A stretch of DNA of 64,000 nt from an uncultured candidate division Zixibacteria bacterium (GCA_963801605.1 CAWDFP010000006.1:768879-832878), one strand, 5' to 3'. Shown: positions 3,907-20,542, numbered from the stretch's first letter. The notes: generated from the sequence alone by a model not told the origin. Program-made: numbers and translations.

Positions 3907-3936
3907 TTGACTAAAATCTGTGTTGTATGTTAATAT
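3907..3936 (+). promoter_or_regulatory. Candidate sigma70-type promoter of the cytochrome cluster
   Basis: TTGACT (3907-3912), then TG-T-TAATAT (3928-3936), an extended -10 with an 18-nt spacer. It lies about 110 nt upstream of the first gene (GTG 4049). Confidence 0.35.
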
Positions 3937-4048
3937 AGAGGCATTAAGGGAACCTGGTGATTGGTTCTACTTTATGATTTGCGTCATATTTCCCTTGACG
4001 GAGCTGATAATGATGTTTAGTATAGTTATCAAATATTTGGAGGCGATT

Positions 4049-4510
4049 GTGAAGGTATTCACATCAGCTAAATTTCCTTTACTTCTTGCTCTTCTTACTG
4101 CGCTTCTGACCTTATCATGCGAAACCGAGGTTAAGGAGTTAACTATCAGGGTAACAAGTCGTATGTACTCTAATTTCGAAGAAGAGCATAAGGTCAAGAT
4201 GTACGAAAAATTTCAGATATCCGATACTGATCTTGAGGCCGTGGCGGTTGAATTCTATCCTGATTTCGATCTCGATACCCTGACGTTTAAGGCTTATTCC
4301 AAATCGGATACGTTAAATAATCCTGCCGTCAAGATTCTGATCATCAAAGGAAATGAGAAAAAAGAGGAAGCCTGGGCGTTTTTGCCGGGGCTGGTTCCGC
4401 ATTTCTCACCTCGTTCTTTTATTGGTTTTGAACTGATGGATTACAAAACTGGCAAGAAATATATAAAGCCGCTAAAACCCAGTCCTGAAAAAGGGAAGGA
4501 AAATGAATAA
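4049..4510 (+). CDS. Lipoprotein of unknown function, first gene of the cytochrome cluster
   Basis: GGAGG at 4039-4043, 5 nt before an in-frame GTG at 4049. N-terminus VKVFTSAKFPLLLALLTALLTLSC has a signal peptide plus a lipobox-like LSC. The track start at 3920 lies inside the putative promoter. The stop overlaps the next gene's start (ATGAATAA). Confidence 0.6.
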   Translation: MKVFTSAKFPLLLALLTALLTLSCETEVKELTIRVTSRMYSNFEEEHKVKMYEKFQISDTDLEAVAVEFYPDFDLDTLTFKAYSKSDTLNNPAVKILIIKGNEKKEEAWAFLPGLVPHFSPRSFIGFELMDYKTGKKYIKPLKPSPEKGKENE

Positions 4511-7500
4511 AAGGCTACTAATCTGCATTGCGCTTCTATTTTGTTTTGGATCATCCTCCCTTTACGCGAAGCAAAAGGAATGTTACGATTGCCATCAAAA
4601 GGCAAAAAAAACCTTCGATTCGTATAAATATTCGCACGAACCTGTCAAAAGCAAAGATTGTGCGGCCTGTCATGATTCGCATGGATTTTCGCAAAAGCTT
4701 GTTCTGAAGGCATACGATAACAGCATTTGCACCAAATGCCACAAGGAATTTGCGGCGGGCTATCCTCCCAGCACGGCAACTTATGTTCATCAGCCTATGA
4801 AAGATCGCGTTTGTTGGTCTTGTCATGAGCCTCACGGCAGTAATCTTCCATCGCTGGTGCGGGTGGTAAATGACACTTTGGTTTGCTTTATATGCCATGA
4901 CGACGTAGGCAATCTTCAAAAAAAGACAGTGGTACATGAGCCATTCGCAAAAAATCAATGTTCGGCCTGCCACAGTGCACATGACAGTCAAGTCGCAGGG
5001 CTTCTAAATAAAAATCAAAAGGAGCTATGCGCCGGATGTCACAGCTTAACCGATAAAGATTATTTGGCTAAACACTCAGTTACGGGTATCGATAAAATCG
5101 ATTGTGTTACTTGTCACAATCCTCATGCCTCCGACAAACCAGGCCTGATCGATCCACTGGCACATGCTCCGATGGTAGAGGGTAGTTGCGAAAGTTGCCA
5201 TAGTAATTTGGCCGCGGGAGATACCACAATTTCGACCACGCCCGGCGAACTATGTGTTACCTGCCATGATGATATTGGCAAGAAAATGGCCATGGCAACG
5301 CCTCATCCGCCGGCGGCGGGCGGAGAATGTCTAACCTGTCATTCGGCTCATAAGGGTAAAGAAAAATCGTTATTAGTATCCAAGCCCGGCGAACTATGCC
5401 TGGGATGTCATACCGAGTTCGCCGACACGTTAAAACTCGAAGGTGTCCATACTGCATTAAGAAATGGCGACTGCAATCTTTGTCATGATTCTCACGGTTC
5501 TCCCAATAAAAGCCTGGTTAAGGATACATCGGATAAACTCTGTCTCGATTGCCATACCGCCCTCAGGGATTCGATGTCTGTTGCAAAGACTCCTCATCCT
5601 GCCGTGGAGACCAAGGGATGTCTCGGTTGCCATCAACCGCATTATTCCAAAAAGATGCCCCTTTTGGTTGATGACGAGAAGCTGATTTGCTTACAATGCC
5701 ATGACAATCTTAAAGAAGAGAGCAAGGCCGGAACGGTTCATATTCCGTTTATGTCGGGGCAATGCGGAGCCTGCCATAATCCGCATGGTTCATCCCAGCC
5801 TAATATGTTTCGGTCAAGCGTACCGGCCGTTTGCGGGCGGTGCCACAATGACGTTATCCAGACTCTCTCTTTGCCGTCAACACACCCGCCTGCCAAAGAG
5901 GGTGAATGCCTTTCATGCCACAAACCGCACTCATCAGATTTTGCCAGGCTTTTAAAGGCAAATGAAAGTCAAAGCTGTGCCGAGTGCCATGGCGATCTGG
6001 ATGGTAAGCTCGCCGTAAAGAATCTTCATACGCCTGTTAAGAATGGCCAATGTACAGCTTGCCATAATCCTCATGGCGCCAAAGAGGCAAAGCTTCTGCC
6101 TGCAAGCGGGAAAGATCTTTGTTTATCATGTCATAAGGATAAAGCGGAAGAGCTGAAAAAAGCAGTGGTGCACCAGCCGGTCAAAGACGGGGAGTGTACC
6201 ACCTGTCATTTAGCGCATGGATCAAATGAGCGTAATAATCTTATTAAACCTGTCGCCGAGCTCTGTCAGGGTTGCCATGATCCCAGTATCGATAAAATTA
6301 AAACAGCCCACGGCGGATATGTTGTCCGAGGTTCCAACTGCGTTACCTGCCATAATCCTCATGCCTCCGATCAACCGAAACTCGTTAATAAAGTTCAACA
6401 TGCACCGTTTGCGGAAAAAAGCTGCGATTCGTGCCATAAAGGTTTAGGCGAGGGCGGCAAGGTACAGTTAGTGGCTGAAGGCGACGCTTTATGCGCTCAA
6501 TGCCACGATGAAGTCGGCAAAATTATGGGGCAGCCGAATATTCACACGCCGATTAAAATGGGCCAGGGATGTATAAGCTGTCATGATCCGCATGCCTCGC
6601 GAAACGAGAAGATGCTTATTGATAAGGTCCCGACGCTCTGCTACAATTGCCACAGCGATTTACAAACGAAATTCGAATCCGATAAAGCCCACTCGCCTGT
6701 TAAAGATGGCAACTGTTTAGCCTGCCATGAAAAACACAGTGGTCCAAACAAGGGACTTCTGATTACCAAGAGCACACAACTCTGTTATAGCTGCCACACA
6801 AAAGAAAAAGAAAAGTTTACTAAAGAGGTAGCTCACAAGCCGGTGGCCGAGGGAAATTGTTTCCAGTGTCACGATGCTCATTCTACCGATAACAATTTTA
6901 TGTTAGTAAAGCCTGAAAGCAAGCTCTGCGTAACCTGTCATTCACTGACCACGCCGGCGTTTCAGCAAGCTCATCATAATTTCCCGATGGAGACCGCCGA
7001 ATGCGCCAAGTGCCATGATCCTCATTCAACTCCGAAAGGATCGGTCGCGCTGCTTTATCCTGATCAGCATAGTCCTTTTAAGATTCGAAACTGTAATGCC
7101 TGCCATGTATCTAACAAGAGTTTCGCCACGATAAAGAGCGGTAAAGAGCTTTGCCTACAATGTCACACCAAGTCGGATGCCCTCTTTGCCAAGAAAAATG
7201 TGCACAAGGCGGTTTCGATGCCGGGCGAATGTGTCAACTGCCATTCGCCGCATACAGGATTTTCCGCAAATATCCTGTCAAAGCCGGCGGGGGATGTCTG
7301 TTTTAATTGTCACAAAAAGGCGGAATTCGAGGGTAAATTCAAACACAAACCGGCTACCGAGAACTGCTCCATTTGTCATGAAGTGCATTCATCGGATAAC
7401 GCCAGCCTTTTAAATGGTGATGATGAGATAAAGCTCTGTCTTAAGTGCCATAACGCCGATAAAACGCACATGCATCCCATGGGCAAGGATTATAAGGATC

Positions 7501-7619
7501 CGCGTAACGGGGAAAGGTTAGTCTGTACAAGTTGCCATTCGCCGCATTCGAGTAATTTTGAAAATATCCTGATGGCCGATAAACAGAGGGAGCTTTGTGT
7601 GGCCTGCCATGCTCTGTAA
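4503..7619 (+). CDS. Giant multihaem c-type cytochrome, 42 CXXCH motifs (doubled-CXXCH / c7-polymer-like)
   Basis: Signal peptide MNKRLLICIALLFCFGSSSLYA. I count 42 CXXCH in 1038 aa, about one per 25 aa. They alternate regularly between LCxxCH(D/T/S) and (E/D/N/Q)CxxCHxPH(G/S/A) units. Confidence 0.95.
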   Translation: MNKRLLICIALLFCFGSSSLYAKQKECYDCHQKAKKTFDSYKYSHEPVKSKDCAACHDSHGFSQKLVLKAYDNSICTKCHKEFAAGYPPSTATYVHQPMKDRVCWSCHEPHGSNLPSLVRVVNDTLVCFICHDDVGNLQKKTVVHEPFAKNQCSACHSAHDSQVAGLLNKNQKELCAGCHSLTDKDYLAKHSVTGIDKIDCVTCHNPHASDKPGLIDPLAHAPMVEGSCESCHSNLAAGDTTISTTPGELCVTCHDDIGKKMAMATPHPPAAGGECLTCHSAHKGKEKSLLVSKPGELCLGCHTEFADTLKLEGVHTALRNGDCNLCHDSHGSPNKSLVKDTSDKLCLDCHTALRDSMSVAKTPHPAVETKGCLGCHQPHYSKKMPLLVDDEKLICLQCHDNLKEESKAGTVHIPFMSGQCGACHNPHGSSQPNMFRSSVPAVCGRCHNDVIQTLSLPSTHPPAKEGECLSCHKPHSSDFARLLKANESQSCAECHGDLDGKLAVKNLHTPVKNGQCTACHNPHGAKEAKLLPASGKDLCLSCHKDKAEELKKAVVHQPVKDGECTTCHLAHGSNERNNLIKPVAELCQGCHDPSIDKIKTAHGGYVVRGSNCVTCHNPHASDQPKLVNKVQHAPFAEKSCDSCHKGLGEGGKVQLVAEGDALCAQCHDEVGKIMGQPNIHTPIKMGQGCISCHDPHASRNEKMLIDKVPTLCYNCHSDLQTKFESDKAHSPVKDGNCLACHEKHSGPNKGLLITKSTQLCYSCHTKEKEKFTKEVAHKPVAEGNCFQCHDAHSTDNNFMLVKPESKLCVTCHSLTTPAFQQAHHNFPMETAECAKCHDPHSTPKGSVALLYPDQHSPFKIRNCNACHVSNKSFATIKSGKELCLQCHTKSDALFAKKNVHKAVSMPGECVNCHSPHTGFSANILSKPAGDVCFNCHKKAEFEGKFKHKPATENCSICHEVHSSDNASLLNGDDEIKLCLKCHNADKTHMHPMGKDYKDPRNGERLVCTSCHSPHSSNFENILMADKQRELCVACHAL

Positions 7620-7625
7620 ACGCTA

Positions 7626-8153
7626 ATGCCCAATAGACGCCATCAAATCTTCGTAAGAGGAGGAGACCACCGCGGGCTGCTGGTGGGATCGATTATCCTG
7701 ATTCTTGTCCTGGTAGTAGTGGCATCAGGCTTGTTTTATATTTTAGCGAACAGAAATTTGGAACAGGCCACTTACCGGGCACATTTCGAGACTTTGCGGA
7801 ACACAATGCAACTGCTTCTTCCCTGGCTTCTGATAGTAAATATAATCGCGCTGATTATAGTGATAATTCTGGCTCTGTTTTTCACTCACAAGATCGCCGG
7901 ACCGGCATACCATCTAATTGTTGATCTCAAAAAGGTTAAGGATGGGGATCTAACGGTGAGAACTGCATTTCGTAAAGGTGACCGCCTCAAGGAGGTAGCA
8001 TCTGCAATGTCTGAAACGACCGAGAATCTGCGTTTAATCGTTGCGGATATTAAAAATGATGTTGCCAATATTTCGGAAGTTTGCGGAGACGAGAAAACCG
8101 TTAAGGAGAAACTCGAAAATCTCAATAGGACTTTGGGCAAATTAAAAACCTGA
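7626..8153 (+). CDS. Two-TM membrane protein with a HAMP domain and short coiled coil, no output domain
   Basis: TM1 LLVGSIILILVLVVVASGLFYIL and TM2 LLPWLLIVNIIALIIVIILALFF, followed by a HAMP-like segment THKIAGPAYHLIVDLKKVKDGDLTVRTAFRKGDRLKEVASAMSETTENL. Its stop overlaps the next start (TGATG). Confidence 0.65.
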   Translation: MPNRRHQIFVRGGDHRGLLVGSIILILVLVVVASGLFYILANRNLEQATYRAHFETLRNTMQLLLPWLLIVNIIALIIVIILALFFTHKIAGPAYHLIVDLKKVKDGDLTVRTAFRKGDRLKEVASAMSETTENLRLIVADIKNDVANISEVCGDEKTVKEKLENLNRTLGKLKT

Positions 8154-8708
8154 TGTGGCTGGTATTATTAGCCGTTTTGATGGCGGTAAATGAAAATTCA
8201 ATTTCGCCGAATATTATGGCGGAGAATATTATCGGCCATACGGGGACGGTATTTCGGGAAAACGCCGGTTTGAAATCGGATAGCTGTACCATCTGTCACA
8301 ATGACGGGGGATTTGATTTGAGCGCGACCACCAACCAACTCTGTTACCACTGCCATGACGATGTCGAATCCAAATCACTAAAGAGGTTCAAGCATACGGA
8401 CGTTGTTAACCCCCAATATCCCGAGCGTAAGTTGCGAGGGATGCCATAAGCTTCACAAAGCAGGCGCGAGACCGTTACTGACTCAAAACGAAATGGAGCT
8501 TTGCCAGGGCTGCCATCCGGAAACAAAGCAATACCTATCTCATCCGGTTGTAACCGGCTTACAGGGACAGACGATTACCGGGAGCGATGGGCGAGTTATT
8601 ACCTGTGCATCACATTGTCATGATGTTCACGGCACGGACAATAAATATTTCTGCAAATTGGAGCCGGGGCGAGAATTGTGTATTTCATGCCATAAGGATT
8701 TTGAGTAA
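8153..8708 (+). CDS. Small multihaem cytochrome (5 CXXCH + 1 CX3CH); frame broken at a C5 run (fragments 8153-8449 and 8403-8708)
   Basis: Fragment 1 carries CTICH and CYHCH. Fragment 2 carries CEGCH, CQGCH, CASHCH and CISCH. Removing one C from CCCCC (8410-8414) gives a continuous ...KHTDVVNPNIPSVSCEGCHKLH... The C-terminus parallels that of the 42-haem protein. Confidence 0.8.
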
Positions 8709-8715
8709 GATCGAT

Positions 8716-9603
8716 ATGATTAAAGAGCGTACGAAAATTTCGCATTTTCTTATTTCGATATCTTTATTGATGTTGTTTTCCGTTTCGGCTGATGCTCAAT
8801 TCAGCGAACAGCATAAAGGTTACGCATTTGAAAACCCGGGCTTTTTAAGCATCCCCGGAGCACTATCATACGATAGCGGACGACATCGTCTGGCCATTGC
8901 CGACAAAGGCCGTCAGTTAGTTTATCTATTCGACCTCACCGATCACTCCTATCAAACCCTTGGAGCGGATAAAGAATTAGGAGAGCCTGCCGGATTGGCT
9001 TTTAGCCGTCAGGGTACATTATTTATCGTCGAGGACAAAAGCCCTTATATCCTAAAGTTTCCATATTCAATCGATCAACCGGAAACGCTAAAATTCGGAG
9101 ATAGTGGCAGCCCGATTCATCCTGGAAAGTTATTTATCAAAAACGATGGCGGTATATTAATTGCCGATAAAGACGATGCTGCCATTTATTCAATTGATTC
9201 CACCGGAGTACTTACCGGGAAGATCACCGAAAAGTTAAGGCAGCCAGATGGAATTATGATCGATCTTTCTGGAGAAATCCTTGTGGCCGATAAAGGTGTT
9301 GACCCTATTTTGGTATATAGCTCAAAAGGTGAATTCGAGCGTAAACTCTCGCGGCCGGAATCTCCCACATCGCAGTTTAGCTTTGCCGCATCGGGGTTGG
9401 CAATTGATCAAAGCGGTTGGATATATACTCTGGATATGACAAGAGAGCAAATCGTTACTTTTGACCCTACCGGAGTTAATCGTTTGGAATGGGCGCCTGA
9501 AGCGCCATTTTTCCCGGAGGATATCGCAATTGACCGCTATAATACGATCTATGTTTCAGAGAGCGGCTCAGGCAGCGTTCGTATTTTTTCGAGGAGCAAC
9601 TGA
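8716..9603 (+). CDS. Secreted NHL-repeat six-bladed beta-propeller protein (copy 1)
   Basis: Start chosen at ATG 8716 (MIKERTKISHFLISISLLMLFSVSADA signal peptide), just after the upstream stop. Six NHL-type blades, e.g. PGALSYDSGRHRLAIADKGRQLVYLFD, PAGLAFSRQGTLFIVEDKSPYILKF, PDGIMIDLSGEILVADKGVDPILVY, PEDIAIDRYNTIYVSESGSGSVRIF. Confidence 0.8.
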   Translation: MIKERTKISHFLISISLLMLFSVSADAQFSEQHKGYAFENPGFLSIPGALSYDSGRHRLAIADKGRQLVYLFDLTDHSYQTLGADKELGEPAGLAFSRQGTLFIVEDKSPYILKFPYSIDQPETLKFGDSGSPIHPGKLFIKNDGGILIADKDDAAIYSIDSTGVLTGKITEKLRQPDGIMIDLSGEILVADKGVDPILVYSSKGEFERKLSRPESPTSQFSFAASGLAIDQSGWIYTLDMTREQIVTFDPTGVNRLEWAPEAPFFPEDIAIDRYNTIYVSESGSGSVRIFSRSN

Positions 9604-9605
9604 TA

Positions 9606-10478
9606 GTGCATCCGATATTGGCGGCGATAATACTCAGTGCAAACATTGGATCGTCCAGGATTGAATTTGCAGCCGTTACTCCGGGGACGATCGATGGGCT
9701 TCCTATGAATAATGCCCAATGCCTGGCAGTCAACCCGCGCACTGAGGAATTTTTGGTGGCTGACGCCCTAAACGATCGCATCCTGGTTTTTGATACCACC
9801 GGTCTGCCCGTATTTGATTTTCAGCTTGGAGCGAATCGTCATAATCCCTTTGGGATTGTAGTCGATTCATCCGATCAGATAATTGTGGGGGCGATGGATT
9901 CTCCGGTGCTTTGGATATACGATTATAGCGGCGAGTTCGTAGATAATATCGAACTTCCCGATAGCGTATATCCGGGTAGGCTTTTAGCCTTACCAGGGGG
10001 CAATCTATTGGTTATAAACCGTTCAGGTCGGGGTGCGCTGCAAATTGATCACAGCGGGAATATCGTTTCGAAATATGAGGTATCCCGGGAAGAGTGTAAA
10101 CCTTCAGGCATATGTCTCGATGCAAAAGGAAATATCATTATAGTTTCCTCGGCCGGGCCGGTTATCACTGCATTTGATCATTATGGGAAAGCGATATTTT
10201 CCTTTGGGGAACATGGCCGGGAGCCAAAAGATTTTTCCCGGCCGACAGCCGCCGCGATTGATGACCACGGCAACTATTGGATAGTTGACTCATTTAGGCA
10301 TGAGTTAAAGCTTTTTGATTCCGATCATAATTTCAAGGAGGTTTTTGGACAACGCGGCACTAATAAAGGAGAGTTTTATTTCCCGGCGGATATAAAGATA
10401 ACTTCAAGCGGTAAAATGGGGATATTGGATAAGGGGTCAGGAAGGCTTCAGATATTTAGATTGAATTATGACAAATAA
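9606..10478 (+). CDS. NHL-repeat beta-propeller protein (copy 2)
   Basis: GTG start 3 nt after the upstream stop. Blades include AQCLAVNPRTEEFLVADALNDRILVFD, PFGIVVDSSDQIIVGAMDSPVLWIYD, PSGICLDAKGNIIIVSSAGPVITAFD, PTAAAIDDHGNYWIVDSFRHELKLFD, PADIKITSSGKMGILDKGSGRLQIF. Confidence 0.8.
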   Translation: MHPILAAIILSANIGSSRIEFAAVTPGTIDGLPMNNAQCLAVNPRTEEFLVADALNDRILVFDTTGLPVFDFQLGANRHNPFGIVVDSSDQIIVGAMDSPVLWIYDYSGEFVDNIELPDSVYPGRLLALPGGNLLVINRSGRGALQIDHSGNIVSKYEVSREECKPSGICLDAKGNIIIVSSAGPVITAFDHYGKAIFSFGEHGREPKDFSRPTAAAIDDHGNYWIVDSFRHELKLFDSDHNFKEVFGQRGTNKGEFYFPADIKITSSGKMGILDKGSGRLQIFRLNYDK

Positions 10479-11451
10479 GCTAATAAAAATCGGACTTACA
10501 GTTCTATTGCTTCAGTTGCCGGCTATTGGAGGAGAATACCATCAGCAATCGGATGTTATTTGCAGCGATTGCCATACAACTCACTATAGCGAGCATGGCA
10601 CGCTGCCTGAAAAGGCCGAACCGGGCGGGCCCTTCACCGAGCTTCTCCTGGTTGGGTCAATTAATAAGCTGTGTCTATCTTGTCACGATGGCACCGACCC
10701 GGCGGCTCCCGATGTGCTTTTCCCCGTGGCGATGTATAACGGATCAGGCTCCGAATACTCGGGGGCAGGCTTTTTTTCCAATGCGGACGGCGTGATTTCC
10801 GTTAATGGCCACTCTCTCGGTGTTCCGCTTGAGATTCCCGATTCTAATCCGGCGCGGACGGTGATGCTTTCCTGCATCAGTTGTCATGACGCGCATGGCA
10901 CATCCAATTACCGAAATCTGGTTTTAAATCCGGATAGTTTGGGTATCGACATAAATCTTTCAATAGGCGCCGATGTTTTTGAAAATGTTCATCCTCAGAA
11001 TCCGCCCGAAAGAAATGCGTCTATCCAGGCGTATAAATCGGGCAACAGCGGATATGTCGATAAAATTACTTTATGGTGTACAGACTGTCATAACGCTCTG
11101 TCTGTGGATAATCCCGGAAATCCGCCGGCTCATTTTATGCGTCATCCGTCCGGAGTGAGTATGGATGGCGTTTCCTATCATCTGAGTCCGGCGCATTGGG
11201 TAAGCGGAGAAGGGGACGGGTTTGGATTAGCCACCGGGGATGGCCTCGAAGGAATCCCCAGGGTACGTTTCCAGTCTGAAGGGGCGACTGATTATAACAC
11301 TGCGATTACGCCATCAAGAACGAATCAGGTGTTTTGTTATTCATGTCATTTTGCTCATGGCGGCCCGTATGAGGCTTCATTAGTATGGCCATATAAAACC
11401 AGCGGTGCAGCGGATATGTACTCGGGGTGTCAGCAATGTCATTACAAATAA
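10468..11451 (+). CDS. Secreted hexahaem c-type cytochrome (paralog family A, member 1)
   Basis: Signal peptide ...LLLQLPAIGG, then EYHQQSDVICSDCHTTHYSEHG. Six CXXCH (CSDCH, CLSCH, CISCH, CTDCH, CYSCH, CQQCH) in 327 aa. 11-nt overlap with the upstream NHL gene. Confidence 0.9.
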   Translation: MTNKLIKIGLTVLLLQLPAIGGEYHQQSDVICSDCHTTHYSEHGTLPEKAEPGGPFTELLLVGSINKLCLSCHDGTDPAAPDVLFPVAMYNGSGSEYSGAGFFSNADGVISVNGHSLGVPLEIPDSNPARTVMLSCISCHDAHGTSNYRNLVLNPDSLGIDINLSIGADVFENVHPQNPPERNASIQAYKSGNSGYVDKITLWCTDCHNALSVDNPGNPPAHFMRHPSGVSMDGVSYHLSPAHWVSGEGDGFGLATGDGLEGIPRVRFQSEGATDYNTAITPSRTNQVFCYSCHFAHGGPYEASLVWPYKTSGAADMYSGCQQCHYK

Positions 11452-13005
11452 AAAAACGATCCGAAATATATTTGGCGACGGCGCTCACCTTAGCGGTCAT
11501 TGTGATACTGGCCGGTTTAGTGTATGCCGATTCCGGCGCATATAAGACCACCAAACACGCAGACCCACAAATCGGAGTGAACCGCGATTCCAATCTTCCT
11601 CGGGGCAATTGTAGTCAATGCCATTTGGAACATAACACCGATAATCCCAACGATTATGCTTTATTCGCCCCGCCGGATAACTCACTATGTCTTTCGTCCG
11701 GTTGCCATGAGTACGAATATCAATGGCCTCCGGGAAACTATTACTGGAGCTATCCCGGCAATGTGCCCGACTGGTATAACTCGGCCCACGGATCATCGAC
11801 AGCGCTATTCACACCGGGCGGTAACCGCGAAGTGCGGCTTTGCGTGCAATGTCATAATCCGCACGGCAAAACCGATTCAACGTATGGCGTTTACCCCTCG
11901 GAGACAAGTTTCCTCGAAGAAGGCGGCTGCTATTCTAACGGCGGATTAATAGGGCAGGGATGCCATGGGAATAATTCAAGTAACAGGCCGATCGGGGCTG
12001 CAGATATTTATTCGGAAATTCTTAAATCATCGCGGCATAATGTCGAAGCGACCACCAAGGAGCATTCCTCTGATTGGATAGCGGTGTATCCTTACGGCAG
12101 AGAATCGCGAACGCCTGTCTCAGGTTTTTTCGCTGGTGATAGGCGGCATGTCGAGTGTGTTGATTGTCACAATCCGCACAAGGCGATTACGGGAACGCAT
12201 CAGCCGGCGACAGGAGAAATCGGCGGTCCGCTTTTGGGCAATTGGGGAGTGGAACCCGGTAGCAGCGCACCCTGGACCGTCCCAATGAGCTTTAATGCTG
12301 TTGATTTTTCCTCGATATCTACGGCCAGAGAGTATCAGCTCTGCCTGAAATGTCATAGTTATTTTGCCTATGGATATAGTCCTCCCACGGGATACACCGA
12401 TATCGCCCGCGAAATAAATCCGGCTAATGCTTCATTTCATCCAATTGAGGATACAATTCGAACCAACTCCTACACATCGCCGTCCCCAAATAACAATTTT
12501 ACCGAAACGATGGAAACACCCTGGGATGATGGCCGTCACAACCAGATGACATGTTCCGATTGCCATGGTTCGGAAAACGGTGCTGATCCCAAAGGCCCGC
12601 ATGGTTCAAACCAGCCCTATATCCTCATGGCTTCGCCGGCCGCAGGCGAAACCGCTTTATGTATCAAGTGCCATAAAGCATCGGTTTATGCGCCGCCGTT
12701 TGATCCGGGCGCACAGGAGACAGGCAGTAGATTCGATTTGCAAACGACGGGAAACGATAAGGCAAATCACTACTATCATGTAACAATCATGAGACTTGGC
12801 TGCCGGCAATGTCACGCGGCACGGCAGACGGTCCCCCCCGGCAATCCCTGAACAGCGGACCCCTTATCCGATTCAGGTGGGTTCGGCTCACGGAACTAAT
12901 TTGTTTGCCGGTCTACTAAATGGTACGAATATTAATTCGTATTCTCCGGGAAGCTGCGCTCCCACTTGCCATGATCCGGTCACTTATAATGCAGGGCCGG
13001 AATAA
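11427..13005 (+). CDS. Multihaem cytochrome (7 CXXCH plus CX4CH, CX10CH and CX3CH variants); frame broken at a C7 run (fragments 11427-12851 and 12796-13005)
   Basis: N-terminal signal/anchor IYLATALTLAVIVILAGLVYA. Motifs CSQCH, CVQCH, CVDCH, CLKCH, CSDCH, CIKCH, CRQCH, plus CLSSGCH (11688-11708), C-x10-CH (11928-11966) and CAPTCH (12955-12972). Deleting one C of 12833-12839 gives ...CRQCHAARQTVPPAIPEQRTPYPIQVGSAHGTN... ATG 11436 is an alternative start. Confidence 0.8.
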
Positions 13006-14624
13006 TGCCGAGAAGATTTGTGTTTGTCATTATTATGCTGGCATCATTAAAAGCTTCTGCCTCCGATTTGAGAGGAAATCTTAATCTCAGCTATCAAGGC
13101 ACTGATGGAGGGGCGGAAAATCCCGCGTCTTCAGTGTTCAGCCAGGTTGCCAATCTTTATATTACCGACCGTATCTTTTACGGCAATGATTTAACTCTGG
13201 GAGCATTTATTTTTCACACCAAAACCTCAGGAGCGGCCAGAGGCGATTTGCGCGTTAGATATTCTGCGAATCTTTTAGGCAATAGATATTCACTTTATTC
13301 GTCGTATTCACCATACACCCTGTACCGCCCCGGAGGGGGTGCACTCAAGGTACGAGTATTTCAAGGATCTCTTACTTACCGTCCAAAATTGCTCCCGGAT
13401 ATTATGGGCAGTTACGCCTCTACTCGTCAGTATACAACCGACAAACCGCGATCCCAGGACGGGCTAAATTATTCCTGGAATTTGGGGACTCAGTTTTCCA
13501 AATCGTTTGGATCGTTCAGCGGCGTCTATCAAAGGCAGCAAACAAAAAACGATCAGGCTCTCGTTCAAACCAAACAGATAACACGAACTATTAATTTGGG
13601 ATATGATATTTCAAAACAGTATCCGGCCAATGTTAATTGGTCGGCGGGATATAATTATATAGGTACCACTACAGAGAACCCGGGTATTCAAAAGGATAAT
13701 AGCCGAACGCATATCGGCTCTTTTCAGGTTGGACGGAATTTTGGCAAATGGTTTTCAATGTCAGGGGCGACGTCTGGCCGAATTTTCGATCTTGAGCATT
13801 TGTCCAGAACAACCAGGATCGAAGATTTTCTTGCCAATGGCTCGGCCAGCATGAAGCTTCGCGAGAACATCACATTTGTACTTCTTCGAGGCTATAATAT
13901 CAGTCAGAACAAAGAAGATTCTACCACGAAAATTATAAACGATTATATAAATCTGGGGGGTGTCTGGGGATTTTCGGTTGGACGAGGCGCCGATACGCGG
14001 CTGGCGTTGTCGAGATCGTATTATTATGCTTCAATCCAGGGGCGCAATATCGTTGATAATGGCACCCTGATTTTTGATATGAATCTTTATCGCCGCACCA
14101 CCGCGACGGTCAATCTGGGAGTTGCTCGTAATCAGAAGATTCTTTCCGGCTTTGGGAGATATCAAATGACGCGTAATGTCGATATTATTTCGAGGCCGCT
14201 GAGGTCAATATCGCTAAACATGAATTACCAGTCATCCGAAACCTCAAACTCGATCAATTTCAAGAACAGCAACAGCGACAATTTTTCTGTGAATCTAACA
14301 CATATTTTGAAATATTATTTTAATTATGCGTTAACTTATACGCGGTCTGCCTTTCATTCGCAAGGGATGAATAATTTCTCGACATTATCGGTGGCATTTA
14401 ATTACCGATTGAGCAATACGCTTTCGTTACTCGGAACGTATAGCAGGCGAGATCTGGGCGAATTATCCACAGCACTTGAAAGCGGTATCGATCAAACTGT
14501 GGGAGGCAGAATTTCCTGGATTACCTCACCAAGAAGTAATTTGACTTTGAATTATTCCGTTTCCAATATTAATACCACACGTCAAACACAAGGTTTTGGC
14601 GGTTATTTTGTGACGAGCTTTTGA
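13005..14624 (+). CDS. Predicted outer-membrane beta-barrel protein (candidate porin of the conduit)
   Basis: Signal peptide MPRRFVFVIIMLASLKASA. 539 aa with no Cys and no haem motif. Amphipathic strand-like runs rich in Y/G/N/S/T/R (LNLSYQG, LTLGAFIFHT, LRVRYSANLLG, LTLNYSVSN). C-terminus GGYFVTSF ends in Phe. ATG overlaps the upstream TAA (TAATG). Confidence 0.6.
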   Translation: MPRRFVFVIIMLASLKASASDLRGNLNLSYQGTDGGAENPASSVFSQVANLYITDRIFYGNDLTLGAFIFHTKTSGAARGDLRVRYSANLLGNRYSLYSSYSPYTLYRPGGGALKVRVFQGSLTYRPKLLPDIMGSYASTRQYTTDKPRSQDGLNYSWNLGTQFSKSFGSFSGVYQRQQTKNDQALVQTKQITRTINLGYDISKQYPANVNWSAGYNYIGTTTENPGIQKDNSRTHIGSFQVGRNFGKWFSMSGATSGRIFDLEHLSRTTRIEDFLANGSASMKLRENITFVLLRGYNISQNKEDSTTKIINDYINLGGVWGFSVGRGADTRLALSRSYYYASIQGRNIVDNGTLIFDMNLYRRTTATVNLGVARNQKILSGFGRYQMTRNVDIISRPLRSISLNMNYQSSETSNSINFKNSNSDNFSVNLTHILKYYFNYALTYTRSAFHSQGMNNFSTLSVAFNYRLSNTLSLLGTYSRRDLGELSTALESGIDQTVGGRISWITSPRSNLTLNYSVSNINTTRQTQGFGGYFVTSF

Positions 14625-14638
14625 TCTCTGGAGGATAG

Positions 14639-15223
14639 ATGAAAAATAAATGCCTTATTTTGGGAATTACATTGTTATTGGCAGTCCTCGGATGCGGCGG
14701 TCCCCGGACCTTTCTCAACGGCAACACAGATTGGACATTTTATAAACAGCTTGGCGTCTTGCCATTTGTTAATCTAACAACCGATCGTTTTGCGGGCGAA
14801 AAGGTGCAGTCGGCCTTTATTACCGAACTTTTTCTTTCGGAACGCTTTCAGGTTATGGAACCAGGAGAGTTTAACTCCAGAGTAGCCCAGGAACTTAAAA
14901 CCTCGGCATCGCAGCCCGTCCAGGAACTTTCCCTTGACCAGATCAAAACGATCGGTGAAAAAACCGGAGTTCAGGGGGTAATCGAGGGTGTTGTCAGAGA
15001 ATATGGTACTACCCGAGTGGGGCAAACCGATTACCCGGTCATTAGCTTAAGTATCAGAATGATCGATGTTCCTACCGGAACAGTAATCTGGATGACATCT
15101 TTCAGCAAAAAAGGCGGCCCTAATTTGCCGATCGTATCGATTGGAGAGACGCATACGCTAAGCGAACTGACGCAGAAGATCTGCCATGACATTGTTTCTG
15201 ATTTTGTAAGCCGTGCCTTTTAA
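14639..15223 (+). CDS. Non-haem lipoprotein, paralog 1 (TolB-N/CsgG/LpoB-like 'VLPF-N' type; family uncertain)
   Basis: MKNKCLILGITLLLAVLGC lipobox. Core motifs LGVLPFVNLTTDRFAGEKVQSAFITEL, VMEPGEF, GVIEGVVREYG, ISLSIRMIDVPTGTVIWMTSFSKKG. No Cys apart from the lipobox region and one other residue, and no CXXCH. Confidence 0.6.
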   Translation: MKNKCLILGITLLLAVLGCGGPRTFLNGNTDWTFYKQLGVLPFVNLTTDRFAGEKVQSAFITELFLSERFQVMEPGEFNSRVAQELKTSASQPVQELSLDQIKTIGEKTGVQGVIEGVVREYGTTRVGQTDYPVISLSIRMIDVPTGTVIWMTSFSKKGGPNLPIVSIGETHTLSELTQKICHDIVSDFVSRAF

Positions 15224-15234
15224 GGAGAATTCGG

Positions 15235-15810
15235 ATGAAGCTTTACTCGAAAACAAACTGGATAATAATTTTATCGTTGGCGTTTTTGTCATGCGGTCCA
15301 AAGCCAAGCGTTTACCTGCAGGATAACAATGGCGCCAAAGCGTCCAAGACGCTCGCCATTTTGCCATTCGATAATTACTCCGGAAAAGAGGATGCCGGCA
15401 AGCAAGTGGCCAATGCCTTTTTGGTGGAACTTCTCAAGAATCCATCGTTTCATGTCGTAGAGCCGGGAGAAGTCGATAGGGTGATGAGGGAGGAACGGAT
15501 TCGCTCATCGAGCCAGATTGATCTGAATGCGGCTCGGCTATTTAAAGATAAGCTTTCGTCGGATTATATTTTAATTGGCGCGGTCAATGAGTTTGATTAT
15601 CTCAAAGACGGCGATCGTGATGTTCCCCTGGTGGGATTTACGGTAAGGTTGCTCGATACCTCAAATGGACAGATTGTTTGGGCGGCCAACTACAGCAGGC
15701 GGGGGGACGATCACGAGCTTGTTTTCGGCTGGGGTTTGGTAAGCTCGCTTTCGGAACTAACTCAAATCAGCGTTCGCGATGCAATTTCCCGTATAAAGAT
15801 TGCACAGTAA
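15235..15810 (+). CDS. Non-haem lipoprotein, paralog 2 (same family as 14639-15223)
   Basis: IILSLAFLSC lipobox. Aligns block by block with the upstream gene: LAILPFDNYSGKEDAGKQVANAFLVEL, VVEPGEV, ILIGAVNEFDY, VGFTVRLLDTSNGQIVWAANYSRRG, LSELTQ. Confidence 0.6.
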   Translation: MKLYSKTNWIIILSLAFLSCGPKPSVYLQDNNGAKASKTLAILPFDNYSGKEDAGKQVANAFLVELLKNPSFHVVEPGEVDRVMREERIRSSSQIDLNAARLFKDKLSSDYILIGAVNEFDYLKDGDRDVPLVGFTVRLLDTSNGQIVWAANYSRRGDDHELVFGWGLVSSLSELTQISVRDAISRIKIAQ

Positions 15811-15886
15811 ACGTAACTCATTACCTCTCTTTTGGTTAGCTTGCCGTCTTAACGGTAAGAATAACGATAATTATTTGAAATAATAC

Positions 15887-15914
15887 TTGACATAGTAATT
15901 GTTACTAATATATT
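15887..15914 (+). promoter_or_regulatory. Candidate sigma70-type internal promoter upstream of the third NHL gene
   Basis: TTGACA (15887-15892), a 16-nt spacer, then TATATT (15909-14). It sits in the only sizeable gap (186 nt) inside the cluster. Confidence 0.45.
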
Positions 15915-15996
15915 TATGACGAATATCATAAATCCCGAGAGGATTTTTGTTAAACGCTCTTGTGAAGAACTTCACTAACCTCGATGTAGAAAAAAA

Positions 15997-16945
15997 ATGA
16001 GAAGATACTTTATCCCGCTGATTTTCCTACTTGTCAACCTGGCTGTCTCGGCCGAACCGTTGGTCGAGCCCAATGTCAGTCTTGTCAGTGTGGTTAAAGG
16101 TTATTCGGATCGTAAAGCATTTGGAAATCCCACAGGAATATTCCTCGATCCCATAAAAAACGAAATCTATGTCGCCGACGCCGGTAATCATCAGATTGGG
16201 ATATTCGACAAGCGCGGCACCAGCTTGTGGACATTCAAGCACTGGGTAACGGATAGCCGGGAGGAAGGCGCCAGGATATCTGGGCGATCCTCATTCAATA
16301 GTGGTTACCAAAGACGGCGACATCATCGTCAGCGACAACAAAGCTGATTATATCGATGTTTTTGATTATCGCGGCTCACTTCAATTAAAAATATCTCCTG
16401 AAGATTATCCTGAGGCAGGCCCATTCAGAGGCGCCATTCTGGCGCTTGATAAATCAGGCAATCTTTATATCGGCACGATTCTTGAAAAATCGGAAATCCT
16501 GGTGCTCGATTCCGATTATCAGCTTATCAAGCGATTCGGGAAAAAAGGTGAGGAGCCGCAGGATTTCCAGAATATCTCGGGAATCTGGGTGAACGGTGAT
16601 GGCAACATTCTGGTCACCGATGCCCTGGGCACTCCAATTTTGAAGAAATTCAATTCCAACGGCGAATATCTCGGTGGTTTTGGAGAGCATAGTATCGAGA
16701 AAAACGATTTTTCGTTTCCAAGCGGAGTGGTGATGACCTCAAGCGGGCGGATCTGGATCGTCGATCAACTTCGACAGGTAGTCAAATGCGTGAACGATTC
16801 GGGAGCTTTCATCACTATGATCGGCGGCCTGGGATATGCTCCCGGCGATATGTGCTATCCCTCCGGAGCCGCTTCCGACGGAGATTCGACGCTGGTAGTA
16901 GTCGAGAAAAACGGTAATAGATTTCAACAATTTATCATCAGGTAA
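15997..16945 (+). CDS. Secreted NHL-repeat beta-propeller (copy 3); frame broken once (fragments 15997-16347 and 16301-16945)
   Basis: Signal peptide MRRYFIPLIFLLVNLAVSA. Blades PTGIFLDPIKNEIYVADAGNHQIGIFD, then after a +1 shift near 16250-16290 (second frame open from 16250: ...APGYLGDPHSIVVTKDGDIIVSDNKADYIDVFD), ISGIWVNGDGNILVTDALGTPILKKF, PSGVVMTSSGRIWIVDQLRQ. Confidence 0.75.
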
Positions 16946-17059
16946 TAAAATGATTAACCCTAAAGTAAATATGCCAGAAGGAGGTGGTACGGTAGTTACA
17001 ATTTTCACAACTCAGATTGTTATTACACGCACTTATTATCAAATTCGAGAGGTTTTGTA

Positions 17060-18109
17060 ATGAAGAAAATTTTCGCACTAACTCTGGCAATGGTATTCGT
17101 TTTCGCGATGACGGCATTCGCCGGTGAATACCACATGGGAAGCTCATTGAGCTGCTACCAGTGCCATTCAATGCACTATAGCCAACAGCATATGTTTGGC
17201 TATGCTCACGAGGATAGTATTCCGTTCCTCGGCCCCGATGGACCATACAACAAGCTGCTTCGTTCGGATGTCAACGATCTTTGCCTTTCCTGCCATGACG
17301 GGGGAGATGTCATAGATGTTTACGGCGTATCCGAAGTCAACGCGACAGTTAACCGCGAGGGCGGTTTCCTTAGCAGAGTCGGCGACGGCAATGAGAATCA
17401 CGGCCATACGCTCGGAGCCACCAGCACTGCTCCCGGTAGCCTTCCAGCTTGGAGCCCGGATCAGACAGAGGGTCTTACCTGCGTCAATTGCCATAGCGCA
17501 CACGGCAGCGCCGGTTCAGGGAATCCGGATCAGGTTAAGGGTCAGTGGAGAAACCTGACCAGGAATCCTGGCAACGGAACCAACAGATACGTCAACTACG
17601 AAAAATCCAGCGAGCCCGTAAACACGACCCGCGACATCAAGTGGAGATCCTCCAGCGCCCACGACGCCGGCGCTTATGAAACCGACAATGTCGATTTTTA
17701 TGAGCCCGTGTCATCTGAATCCCGTTACGGCGCCTGGTGCCAGGGATGCCATACCAATTTCCATGGTAATTCCTCAAGCGACAATATGGCTAATGCGGAC
17801 GGATGGATCCGTCACCCGACAGCCGACGTTAATCTAGGGACCTCTGGCGCAACCGATTTTGCATCCCATGCTTATCGTCCGCAAGTGATGAGCCCGACAG
17901 GCAACTGGGGCACCCAGGGCGATTCCACCTGGACTCCGCCGACCGATCTTACCCCGACTTGCGTTACTTGCCATAAAGGCCACGGCAACGGTAATGCGTT
18001 CGGTCTCGTTTATATGGATGGCCGCCATCCGCGTACAGAAAACGGCGATGCGGTATCTACCAAGATTACTGCTACCTGCAAAATCTGTCACAGCCAGGGC
18101 GGTTATTAA
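17060..18109 (+). CDS. Secreted hexahaem c-type cytochrome (paralog family A, member 2)
   Basis: Signal peptide MKKIFALTLAMVFVFAMTAFA, then GEYHMGSSLSCYQCHSMHYSQQH. Six CXXCH (CYQCH, CLSCH, CVNCH, CQGCH, CVTCH, CKICH) in 349 aa. RBS GAGAGG. Followed by a strong terminator. Confidence 0.9.
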   Translation: MKKIFALTLAMVFVFAMTAFAGEYHMGSSLSCYQCHSMHYSQQHMFGYAHEDSIPFLGPDGPYNKLLRSDVNDLCLSCHDGGDVIDVYGVSEVNATVNREGGFLSRVGDGNENHGHTLGATSTAPGSLPAWSPDQTEGLTCVNCHSAHGSAGSGNPDQVKGQWRNLTRNPGNGTNRYVNYEKSSEPVNTTRDIKWRSSSAHDAGAYETDNVDFYEPVSSESRYGAWCQGCHTNFHGNSSSDNMANADGWIRHPTADVNLGTSGATDFASHAYRPQVMSPTGNWGTQGDSTWTPPTDLTPTCVTCHKGHGNGNAFGLVYMDGRHPRTENGDAVSTKITATCKICHSQGGY

Positions 18110-18121
18110 TAGTCCGCTTGA

Positions 18122-18155
18122 AGGAGGGTGTCTCGCACACCCTCCTTTTTCTTTT
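18122..18155 (+). terminator. Rho-independent terminator after the hexahaem cytochrome
   Basis: AGGAGGGTG (18122-18130), loop TCTCGCA, CACCCTCCT (18138-18146), followed by TTTTCTTTT. Confidence 0.8.
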
Positions 18156-18179
18156 CATACTTTTACTGCGGGATAAATA

Positions 18180-19298
18180 ATGATCAAACACACAATTGTA
18201 TTTCTTTTTGCGATGATTTCTCTTTCTACCGCCGGAACTATTTTACAGAATGACGGTTTCCCGCACAAACCCGGTTCCGGTTATCAACCCGGCGCAATAC
18301 TCGATACGCCGCCCTTTACGCCAGGTTATCACAATGGCAACGACATGGTTTGCTCAGATTGCCATATTATGCATGCCTCTATGCAGCATGATTATGGTAC
18401 CCCTGATTCTTATACCTATCCTTATAACGTTGAGCCTCCCGCAAATCATCTTCTTAAGGCTGCGAACGCCTTAACGCTGTGTCTGTCCTGTCACAACGAT
18501 AAGGTTGGTATTCCCGATGTTGTCGGCGCCGACGTCAATGGAGGGAGTGATCGTGCGGCGGGACAGCTTGGCGAAGTTGGCGAAATCAACAACAACGGGC
18601 ATAATATTGCTCCTGATCCGGGGGACCTCTGCAATCGATGCCATTTTGGAGGGGAGTTTCACACCGCTTCTGTAGAGTGTATCGATTGTCATGCTCCACA
18701 TGGTACCCGGTATTATCGCAATTTACAGTGGGCGTCATGGCCGGGTCATCAGCCACCTATTGTCGCTTTTGTCAGGCCTGGTTCGCAGGGACTTGACAAA
18801 TATCAAACTGCCAATGTTCGATACGGCGCTCCCGGTTATGGACGTGGTCAGGCGACCTGGAGAGAGGTAACTAATATCTGCATTGATTGTCATCATACCC
18901 TGGTTGACGCCTCGCCCAACGGTGGACGTTATACCAATCCGGAGCTTGATGATCATTGGAATAGACACCCCGGTACAAATAGCGAAGACGGCGCATATCG
19001 GCCTATTGGCGGTTTACCGGATGATCCCGATGTTTACACCGATCCTCAGAATTGGGTAAGCGGTGAAGGTTCCGAATTTTCTGTTGGACGAGTGCCTTAT
19101 ATCGTAACCGAGGCTCACTCATTTCAACAGGCGGACGTTGTTTCCACCAGTAACGAGGTTTTCTGTCTTTCCTGTCATAGCGCTCACGGCACCGATAAGC
19201 CGTTTGGTTTACGATGGAATCCGACCAATAACTCAACTCCACTGGCTACTGCTGGATGCCGTCAATGCCATAACAATACAGCGAGCAATATTCCATAG
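18180..19298 (+). CDS. Secreted heptahaem c-type cytochrome (paralog family A, member 3)
   Basis: Signal peptide MIKHTIVFLFAMISLSTA. Seven CXXCH (CSDCH, CLSCH, CNRCH, CIDCH x2, CLSCH, CRQCH) in 372 aa. Shares ...GYHNGNDMVCSDCHIMHASMQH and NNNGHNI blocks with the other two family members. Confidence 0.9.
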   Translation: MIKHTIVFLFAMISLSTAGTILQNDGFPHKPGSGYQPGAILDTPPFTPGYHNGNDMVCSDCHIMHASMQHDYGTPDSYTYPYNVEPPANHLLKAANALTLCLSCHNDKVGIPDVVGADVNGGSDRAAGQLGEVGEINNNGHNIAPDPGDLCNRCHFGGEFHTASVECIDCHAPHGTRYYRNLQWASWPGHQPPIVAFVRPGSQGLDKYQTANVRYGAPGYGRGQATWREVTNICIDCHHTLVDASPNGGRYTNPELDDHWNRHPGTNSEDGAYRPIGGLPDDPDVYTDPQNWVSGEGSEFSVGRVPYIVTEAHSFQQADVVSTSNEVFCLSCHSAHGTDKPFGLRWNPTNNSTPLATAGCRQCHNNTASNIP

Positions 19299-19370
19299 AG
19301 GAAATTAGAAGTATTGGAGTAGAGAGAAACTACCCGTAATTCGATTTTAATTAATAAGAAATTTTTGCTT

Positions 19371-19407
19371 AATAAGGTATCCATCCGGGTACCTTATTAT
19401 GTTTTTA
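19371..19407 (+). terminator. Rho-independent terminator closing the cytochrome cluster
   Basis: AATAAGGTATCC (19371-19382), loop ATCC, GGGTACCTTATT (19387-19398) with one mismatch, then ATGTTTTT. Confidence 0.6.
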
Positions 19408-19593
19408 GGCAGCATAATAAAATAAGAAATAGTTTAGGAAATTTAAGATTGTTCTCGCCGGGTTTTCATTAATTATATTGCCACTGATTATAATCGAGGA
19501 TTGGTTATTTTCATCTTGGGTTTTCAACAATTAGGTTCTATTATAATCATCATGAGTATATGTTTTAGGAAGTTCATTTGGTAAGGCAGGCGA

Positions 19594-20496: not shown

Positions 20497-20542
20497 AGCC
20501 GGTGGGCTTTTAGAATTAAATGTTTTATTGAAAGGAATTTTT

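Follow-up and report, generated by a model that had tools for sequence, protein, structure and literature searches.

A 42-haem cytochrome of an uncultured Zixibacteria bacterium: a single-chain fusion of 26-haem and 16-haem cytochromes and candidate electron wire of the cell envelope

Introduction

A stretch of 64,000 nucleotides from an uncultured candidate division Zixibacteria bacterium (GCA_963801605.1 CAWDFP010000006.1:768879-832878), hereafter called the window and numbered from its first letter, carries an open reading frame (ORF) for a c-type cytochrome with 42 CXXCH haem-binding motifs. A previous reading of this DNA from sequence alone (hereafter the sequence-only reading) had proposed that the protein is a soluble wire, periplasmic or extracellular, or an electron capacitor, and that it feeds the barrel encoded nearby. 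The locus thus raises the question of whether such an array is real, how it is built, and what a protein of this kind would do. Our analyses indicate that the protein joins in one chain two cytochromes that are encoded by neighbouring genes elsewhere, and its best overall explanation, to which we assign a probability of roughly 60%, is a Sec-exported, MtrA-type 42-haem wire serving a porin-cytochrome module of the cell envelope.

The 42-haem gene and its product

4503-7619, + strand: gene of the 42-haem c-type cytochrome, an intact ORF of 1038 amino acids (aa) with 21 Paired_CXXCH_1 domains
4503-4568, + strand: signal peptide, residues 1-22, with predicted cleavage between SLYA and KQ, read from the sequence

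The ORF at 4503-7619 contains exactly 42 CXXCH motifs at intervals of 20-30 aa (mean 24.5, alternating near 25 and near 23), and a search of the 1038-aa protein for the variants CX3CH, CX4CH and CXXCK found none. Shuffles of the protein's own residues (n=2000) gave a mean of 0.59 and a maximum of 4 CXXCH. The Pfam family PF09699 (Paired_CXXCH_1) matched 21 stretches with an E-value of 2e-217 and 703 bits against a cut-off of 20.6, and NCBIfam TIGR01905 likewise matched 21 stretches (673 bits, cut-off 25.2). Motif count, shuffles and Pfam domains together bear out the 42 motifs in 1038 aa of the sequence-only reading. Six-frame translation of the whole window yielded 73 CXXCH, all on the + strand and 59 of them in the reading frame containing the 42-haem ORF.

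The N-terminus, MNKRLLICIALLFCFGSSSLYA followed by KQKE after the cleavage site, has the appearance of a type-I Sec signal peptide, and a canonical lipobox was sought there and not found. Past residue 25 the mean hydropathy is at most 1.14 in every 19-aa window and no hydrophobic segment occurs, in agreement with the earlier description of a signal peptide without transmembrane (TM) segment or lipobox. In the homologues that share the full-length chain, the signal peptides mostly end in AxA followed by AK(T/K), a lipobox being present instead in 7 of 88. The mature apoprotein has a mass of 110.5 kDa and 24.2 aa per haem, and only two residues follow its last haem motif (2-21 in the full-length homologues).

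Modular plan of the haem array

When the haems were typed by their downstream histidines, two kinds emerged: A-type haems, in which CXXCH is followed 15-20 residues later by a distal His, usually within HxP, and B-type haems with CXXCHxxH. The array consists of 19 A-B pairs, three single haems (9, 26, and 35), and one terminal haem. The B units at haems 8, 25, and 34 carry a second HxP histidine, and the single haem that follows each of them has no histidine of its own, its distal His being supplied by the extra HxP motif of the preceding unit. The resulting plan, ABABABAbc / ABABABABABABABAbc / ABABABAbc / ABABABA, or 9+17+9+7 haems, is present in every 42-haem homologue and divides the protein into four modules.

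4581-5252, + strand: module 1, haems 1-9 (ABABABAbc), by motif typing
5253-6491, + strand: module 2, haems 10-26 (8 A-B pairs and a single haem), by motif typing
6492-7151, + strand: module 3, haems 27-35 (ABABABAbc), by motif typing
7152-7616, + strand: module 4, haems 36-42, most like the C-terminal pentahaem half of MtrA, by phmmer alignment

The 21 doubled-CXXCH units proposed earlier stand as 21 Pfam and TIGR01905 stretches, but the array is not built of clean doublets; Pfam's 21 PF09699 matches are B-to-A pairs within the modular plan. Outside the motifs the protein has 43 histidines, including an extra HxH near residues 989-991 that is usable for the last haem, so that a distal His is available for every haem and all-bis-His ligation is possible. 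All 42 motifs and 39 further histidines are invariant in an alignment of 37 homologues. Judged from this arrangement, ligation is apparently bis-His throughout and no haem site appears open or catalytic.

The array is not a product of assembly. Tandem Repeats Finder detected no tandem repeat array in the DNA, and the repeat families of the DNA, short and 60-80% identical, are confined to motif codons. Compared with each other, the A-B units have a mean protein identity of 31% (44% maximum), most of it in the Cys/His skeleton. Haem counts among homologues, which the sequence-only reading had suggested recording, gave exactly 42 motifs in 87 of the 91 proteins longer than 1000 aa, which are 33-58% identical and come from many independent assemblies. 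Collapse or expansion of the array, the objection to which that reading had declared itself open, is excluded by the missing DNA repeat, the diverged units, and these homologues. A recent tandem duplication was considered as well and rejected, since the units are only about 31% identical and, between orthologues, those at the same position are slightly closer (36-41%) than those at other positions (30-32%).

A fusion of 26-haem and 16-haem cytochromes

Loci encoding relatives of the protein fall into two groups. Fused loci were compared from the Zixibacteria RBG_16_53_22 (L001) and UBA10806 (L002), from Latescibacterota (L005), and from Krumholzibacteria (L006), and split loci from Acidobacteria (L007, JACPZX010000084), Planctomycetes (L008), Desulfobulbus (L009), and Pseudomonadota (L003). 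By the 42-haem protein, the closest genome contigs are those of UBA10806 (81% aa identity) and RBG_16_53_22 (64%).

The next size class of homologues has 26 haems in a 9+17 plan, which equals modules 1 and 2. In all four split loci a 26-haem gene is directly followed by a gene for a protein of 412-442 aa with 16 CXXCH and its own signal peptide. The 26-haem proteins of these loci match the window protein at E-values of 1e-103 to 1e-125, are colinear with its residues 5-650, and end 1-6 residues past the 26th motif; those of L009 and L003 bear N-terminal lipoboxes. The full-length 26-haem protein P0313 of Desulfuromonas sp. is similarly colinear with residues 5-647 (34% identity, E 2e-110). The 16-haem proteins of L007 and L009 align to residues ~657-1036, and 27 clusters of 16-haem proteins in the representative library follow a 9+7 plan, equal to modules 3 and 4. 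The sum of 26 and 16 is 42, and the break falls exactly at the boundary between modules 2 and 3.

6438-6491, + strand: fusion junction, the linker after haem 26 (residues 646-663, KGLGEGGKVQLVAEGDAL), placed by the end and start points of the split systems

The 23 aa between motifs at the junction resemble the spacing of the other internal module junctions, and a signal-like segment was sought in the 18-residue linker and not found; the gene is one ORF with one signal peptide. When the Desulfobulbus 26-haem protein was used as query, proteins of Thermodesulfobacteria, Desulfuromonas, and Desulfuromonadales and the fused proteins of the FCB group were retrieved at comparable scores. On these alignments, the window protein is a fusion in which a 26-haem and a 16-haem cytochrome, the products of neighbouring genes in other lineages, form a single chain. 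The named sources of fused homologues are Zixibacteria, Latescibacterota, Krumholzibacteria, Gemmatimonadaceae, and 'FCB group'. By the same comparison, the fused form occurs in Zixibacteria, Latescibacterota, Krumholzibacteria, and Gemmatimonadota, and the split pair in Desulfobacterota, Acidobacteriota, Planctomycetota, and Pseudomonadota.

The split pair has been described before. An operon found in SEEP-SRB1, Geobacter, Anaeromyxobacter, Desulfuromonas, Desulfurivibrio, and 'Ca. Desulfofervidus' has as its core a six-bladed propeller, a 16-haem and a 26-haem cytochrome, and a peptidyl-prolyl isomerase (PPIase), all predicted to be periplasmic (Skennerton et al. 2017, PMC5539420). In G. sulfurreducens, GSU2495 has 26 motifs (PMC2996986), and GSU2495/GSU2494 are the oscI/oscJ genes of the omcS region, with products listed as periplasmic (PMC13194489). 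The conduit first noted by Skennerton was renamed OetABI by Murali et al. 2023, in whose description OetA is periplasmic, OetI is a porin, and OetB is a lipoprotein cytochrome outside the cell. Of the split loci, L007, L008, and L009 have a PPIase gene; for fused L005 and L006 the listing over 10 kb shows no such gene, and the rotamase (PPIase) family was sought and not found among the scanned ORFs of the window (3920-21304). In L007, genes of a cbb3-type oxidase (COX1, FixO, and a cytochrome c; 13585-16617) lie directly after the 26+16-haem operon, a placement suggestive of O2 reduction fed by electron uptake in this lineage.

Other relatives depart from the total of 42. A class of 38-haem homologues (P0096, P0098, P0104, P0113, and P0139) has another module plan with several short ABAbc modules, showing that the family is able to re-tile its modules. 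The library further contains P0178 (3592 aa), P0208 (3274 aa), and P0136 (1629 aa), with 131, 129, and 52 CXXCH from similar units, the two giants P0178 and P0208 consisting almost wholly of A-type units. Cytochromes with 63 and 85 motifs have been reported from PCC3 clusters (He et al. 2017, PMC5566968), and these, with the library proteins of 129 and 131 motifs, make outdated the earlier statement that more than about 30 haems is very rare among described proteins.

Fold and solved relatives

AlphaFold2 modelling of the 42-haem protein from the 37-sequence alignment gave a mean predicted local distance difference test score (pLDDT) of 84.3 and a predicted template modelling score (pTM) of 0.51. 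The local fold is thus predicted with confidence, whereas the relative arrangement of the modules and the global shape are uncertain because the pTM is only 0.51. The only PDB match by Foldseek was 6R2Q_A, MtrA from the Mtr complex of Shewanella (E 2e-6, probability 1.0), which was also the sole strong match in a PDB sequence search (E 4e-14). By phmmer, residues 877-1018 (haems 36-41) align to MtrA 176-324, its C-terminal pentahaem half. The MtrA/DmsE decahaem family TIGR03508 scored 443 bits against a cut-off of 192, a sum over ten partial stretches of a repetitive protein.

The protein had earlier been likened to the c7 polymers of Geobacter such as GSU1996. This does not hold, as the closest relatives are of the MtrA/DmsE type and GSU1996 was not retrieved in the PDB sequence and fold searches. 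The Pfam family Cytochrome_C7 (PF14522) gave secondary matches (E 1e-45, 11 stretches), and a c7-polymer relationship was rejected since the period is of two haems and not that of a trihaem c7, PF09699 matches far more strongly, and GSU1996 is absent.

Neighbouring genes

The 42-haem gene belongs to a cluster on the + strand that spans 4049 to about 19298. A divergent gene for a PAS-LuxR regulator and an AT-rich spacer of 800 bp come before the cluster, and an EamA transporter gene lies just beyond its downstream end.

4049-4510, + strand: small lipoprotein of about 153 aa with a GTG start and a signal ...LLTALLTLS before the Cys, by translation; no Pfam family
7626-8153, + strand: two-TM HAMP-like protein of 175 aa, by translation; weak NCBIfam matches to chemoreceptor/kinase HAMP regions
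8153-8708, + strand: pentahaem gene, frameshifted at a C5 run near 8410-8420; frames 0 and 1 match an intact 183-aa protein of L002 with 5 CXXCH
8587-9603 (start uncertain) and 9606-10478, + strand: two NHL beta-propellers, by Pfam NHL/SGL; conserved in L001
10468-11451 and 11427-12851, + strand: six-haem and seven-haem cytochromes, directly upstream of the barrel; conserved in L001, L005, and L006
13005-14624, + strand: outer-membrane beta-barrel of 539 aa with 28 predicted strands; AlphaFold2 pLDDT 81.6, all-beta by DSSP, ending ...GGYFVTSF
14639-15223 and 15235-15810, + strand: two LpoB/CsgG-like lipoproteins, by Pfam PF13036/PF03783
15997-16945, + strand: third NHL propeller, with a frameshift near 16290; frames 0 and 1 match an intact 327-aa protein of L001, Pfam NHL
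17060-18109 and 18180-19298, + strand: second pair of six-haem and seven-haem cytochromes

The small-lipoprotein gene runs 8 nt into the start of the 42-haem gene, its stop overlapping the ATG there, and in L001, L005, and L006 a homologue of this lipoprotein is likewise encoded immediately before the 42-haem gene. The upstream ORF, taken as 3920-4510, was also considered as a five-TM dihaem b-type inner-membrane protein of the PCC3 kind and rejected, being a lipoprotein without a TM bundle.

For the barrel, Foldseek placed MtrB (6r2q_B) as the second-best PDB fold match (E 6.6e-9), the others being LptD and TonB-dependent barrels, and Pfam and NCBIfam scans gave no family match; its predicted likeness to MtrB is at the level of a generic large-barrel fold only. 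The 28-strand model, the C-terminal F, and MtrB among the top two fold matches nevertheless uphold the premise of the sequence-only reading that the cluster encodes an outer-membrane barrel. Barrel homologues occur in L001 and L005, and LpoB/CsgG-like lipoproteins adjoin the barrel in L001, L003, L005, L006, L008, and L009. The gene order in L005 and L006 is 6-haem, 6-haem, barrel, two LpoB-like lipoproteins, small lipoprotein, 42-haem, and RBG_16_53_22 has the order of the window minus the HAMP and pentahaem genes. On the basis of these gene orders, the tie of the 42-haem gene to the barrel cassette is conserved across Zixibacteria, Latescibacterota, and Krumholzibacteria.

HAMP-like homologues adjoin the cytochrome in L002 and L003. 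The HAMP-like protein, which has no output domain, travels with the pentahaem gene in the window, in L002 (1400-2960; Zixibacteria), and in L003 (7211-8286; a metagenome-assembled genome of Pseudomonadota), and it is absent from the RBG_16_53_22, Latescibacterota, and Krumholzibacteria loci. Planctomycetes L008 likewise has two six-haem genes, apart from its 26+16 pair.

Outside the cluster, a pst/pho phosphate-uptake operon contains a pstB-like ATPase gene and a pstS-like binding-protein gene that are each split into two ORFs (43782-44616 and 46584-47433, both - strand). Together with the pentahaem gene and the third NHL gene, four genes are thus frameshifted in the window, so that indel errors or pseudogenes occur there; four broken genes in 64 kb suggest that the assembly has indel errors at homopolymers or that these are genuine pseudogenes. 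The window also encodes a 2434-aa hybrid sensor kinase with ~10 PAS domains and GAF, HisKA, HATPase, and two receiver domains (33134-40438, + strand), and two gingipain-like Peptidase_C25 proteins of 1167 and 1621 aa (25905-29408 and 51590-56455, both - strand). In L005, from Latescibacterota, a C25 peptidase is also encoded beside the cytochrome cluster.

Proposed function

We infer that the 42-haem protein is located in the cell envelope, and from synteny it is plausible that it feeds the barrel. The wire proposed in the sequence-only reading retains its support from the signal peptide, the 24 aa per haem, and the apparent all-bis-His ligation, but that reading overlooked that the protein is a fusion of the 26+16 pair. 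The fusion implies that the two members of the pair would work as a single uninterrupted conductor of 42 haems.

In the model that we favour, the protein would leave the cytoplasm by Sec and become, in the periplasm, a mature holo-cytochrome of roughly 136 kDa, with 42 low-spin bis-His haems forming one chain of the MtrA type. Continuity of this chain is suggested by the homology of each unit to MtrA units and by the uniform spacing of 20-30 aa. The C-terminal 16-haem part would dock in or at the barrel, as MtrA does with MtrB, a placement proposed because the C-terminal module is the most MtrA-like and because the natural break yields a 16-haem C-terminal piece. The N-terminal 26-haem part would reach across the periplasm toward the inner membrane and would be tethered, either through the co-translated lipoprotein acting in trans or, in some homologues, through a lipid anchor of its own; such a tether is suggested by the lipoboxes of some fused homologues and of the L009 and L003 26-haem proteins, and by the lipoprotein gene that is translationally coupled upstream. 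Electrons would then cross the envelope through one covalent wire and not by diffusing carriers, and the capacity to store up to 42 electrons would be an added advantage.

Homologues of MtrA have ~33 aa per haem, a low value being taken as the hallmark of a wire, and the ten haems of MtrA are quoted to span about 100 Å (PMC5566968). The 24 aa per haem of the window protein lie below the roughly 33 of these homologues, and by extrapolation 42 haems, if extended, would measure about 30-40 nm. A length of about 30-40 nm is comparable with the width of the periplasm and outer membrane together.

Several points weigh against a wire that serves the barrel in this way. The pTM of 0.51 leaves the arrangement of the modules in the AlphaFold2 model uncertain. 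It is the 6- and 7-haem genes, and not the 42-haem gene, that lie directly upstream of the barrel, and a 6- or 7-haem cytochrome could be the barrel insert. A quinol dehydrogenase, a cytochrome b, or another inner-membrane redox partner was not found in the cluster. Finally, the proposed polarity would be wrong if the 26-haem lipoprotein is the OetB of Murali et al.

A stricter version of the model takes the invariant 42 haems as a molecular ruler, with the protein as a rigid single-file wire that bridges the inner membrane and the 28-strand barrel and makes diffusible periplasmic carriers unnecessary. We put this forward tentatively, and consider it doubtful as it stands.

Alternative functions

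A first alternative is that the polarity is reversed, so that the N-terminal 26-haem part would form a surface wire outside the cell, lipid-anchored in some lineages, and the 16-haem part would be periplasmic or inserted in the barrel. The chain would then thread the barrel with most of its mass outside, which would suit the lipoboxes on the L009 and L003 26-haem proteins, possibly also the extracellular lipoprotein cytochrome OetB in the conduit of Murali et al., and the very large extracellular cytochromes of PCC3 systems. However, the region closest to the outward-facing C-terminal half of MtrA is the C-terminus of the fused protein, no secretion tag is present, with just 2-21 residues beyond the last haem in fused homologues, and export of a folded 26-haem domain that is still joined to a periplasmic domain has no known precedent. 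A reversed polarity is therefore unlikely.

The protein could also be a free periplasmic electron reservoir or shuttle, that is, a soluble 42-electron capacitor that neither docks to the barrel nor bridges membranes. A signal peptide without a TM segment is what such a protein would have; the split pair is predicted to be periplasmic and unattached (Skennerton et al., PMC5539420), GSU2495 and GSU2494 are listed as periplasmic (PMC13194489), and this role for haem-rich cytochromes has been discussed in the literature. Yet the haem count and the order of modules are kept strictly the same from phylum to phylum, in fused as well as split systems, which suits a constraint on structure or length better than storage in bulk, and the gene is held in tight synteny with the barrel and lipoproteins in multiple phyla and is translationally coupled to a lipoprotein gene. 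We regard a free capacitor as quite improbable.

A catalytic multihaem enzyme, such as a reductase or oxidase of a soluble substrate, is very improbable. NrfA, HAO, and the octahaem reductases are multihaem enzymes, and weak NCBIfam similarities to NrfB/NrfH were seen, but the protein has no CXXCK or atypical motif, a conserved distal His is present for every haem, the chain consists wholly of motif units without a non-haem domain, and PDB fold matches to nitrite reductase or HDH are insignificant (E about 1 or worse). That the assembler collapsed or expanded the array, or that an indel error falsely joined two genes, is barely conceivable even in a window with at least four frameshift-split genes (the 5-haem gene, the NHL gene, pstB, and pstS), given DNA without tandem repeat, the same fused 42-haem plan at similar lengths in 88 independent homologues, and a junction with no signal-peptide remnant and a 23-aa spacing equal to that of other module junctions.

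Significance

Reports of the 26+16 pair, from Geobacter and from sulfate reducers that live as partners of methane-oxidising archaea, go back to 2010-2017 and assign it no function. A fused form that is widespread across at least four phyla of the FCB group indicates that the 26-haem and 16-haem proteins act in series, as one chain of 42 haems. The strict conservation of 42 points to a geometric constraint, for example the width of the cell envelope, and the wire that we propose is a concrete and testable model for an electron crossing of the periplasm that needs no shuttle. If the ruler interpretation is true, the fused gene of Zixibacteria and related phyla would serve as a Rosetta stone, proving that the pair of Geobacter and SEEP-SRB1 is one conductor. 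The system is moreover extended to abundant uncultured lineages of sediments and aquifers, including Zixibacteria, and such lineages are implicated in iron and sulfur cycling. The single-chain version is also a simpler target for expression and cryo-EM.

Comparison with known systems

Among described systems, PCC3 clusters have in common with the window haem-rich, repetitive cytochromes with few aa per haem beside a large porin, and a 21-27-haem periplasmic cytochrome has been proposed to span the periplasm in them (PMC5566968; Gallionellaceae, PMC10734462). The hallmark of PCC3, in contrast, is an inner-membrane protein of ~300 aa with five TM helices and two HX13H motifs, of which the window cluster has none, its sole membrane protein (7626-8153) being 175 aa long with two TM helices. 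The haem number varies widely in PCC3 and is fixed at 42 here, in a comparison made by description only. The Uet cluster of Tenderiales (bioRxiv 10.1101/2022.05.06.490989) shares doubled-CXXCH cytochromes, NHL propellers, and a predicted 28-strand barrel, UetC, and the DFE_0448-0451 and DFE_0461-0465 clusters of Desulfovibrio ferrophilus (PMC5815863) encode multihaem cytochromes with NHL propellers; a PPIase, a further point of likeness to these clusters, occurs in the split relatives of the 42-haem family. The Uet and DFE cytochromes, compared again by description, are undecahaem, tetrahaem, and trihaem c7 proteins accompanied by a cupredoxin, with no 26/16 or 42-haem component among them.

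With the dodecahaem GSU1996 the protein shares the principle of small haem modules concatenated into a linear 'nanowire', and with MtrA it shares the doubled-CXXCH unit and the bis-His haems. MtrA, which in the Mtr complex is a wire sheathed by a 26-strand barrel, is built of two pentahaem halves, whereas modules of 9 and 17 haems are found here, and MtrA/DmsE proteins have 10 haems in about 300-350 aa as compared to 42 in 1038 aa. In addition, MtrA is encoded adjacent to an MtrB/PioB porin, while the barrel of the window lies 5.4 kb downstream and has no MtrB/PioB family match.

The 26+16 pair has the same 9+17 and 9+7 plans, and its operon is described with a six-bladed propeller where the window cluster has NHL propeller genes. 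The likeness to GSU2495/GSU2494 and to SEEP-SRB1 is drawn from the Desulfobulbus, Desulfuromonas, and Thermodesulfobacteria homologues together with the matching operon description. The pair consists of two polypeptides with their own signal peptides and the window protein of one, and the window adds the 28-strand barrel, two pairs of 6/7-haem cytochromes, and the co-translated small lipoprotein. A literature search for a 42-haem cytochrome returned nothing relevant. In conclusion, the PF09699 domain, the wire principle (MtrA and the proposed periplasm-spanning cytochromes of PCC3), and the 26+16 pair are already known, while the single-chain 42-haem form, its spread in the FCB group, the 9+17+9+7 plan, and a total of 42 that is kept whether fused or split appear to be new.

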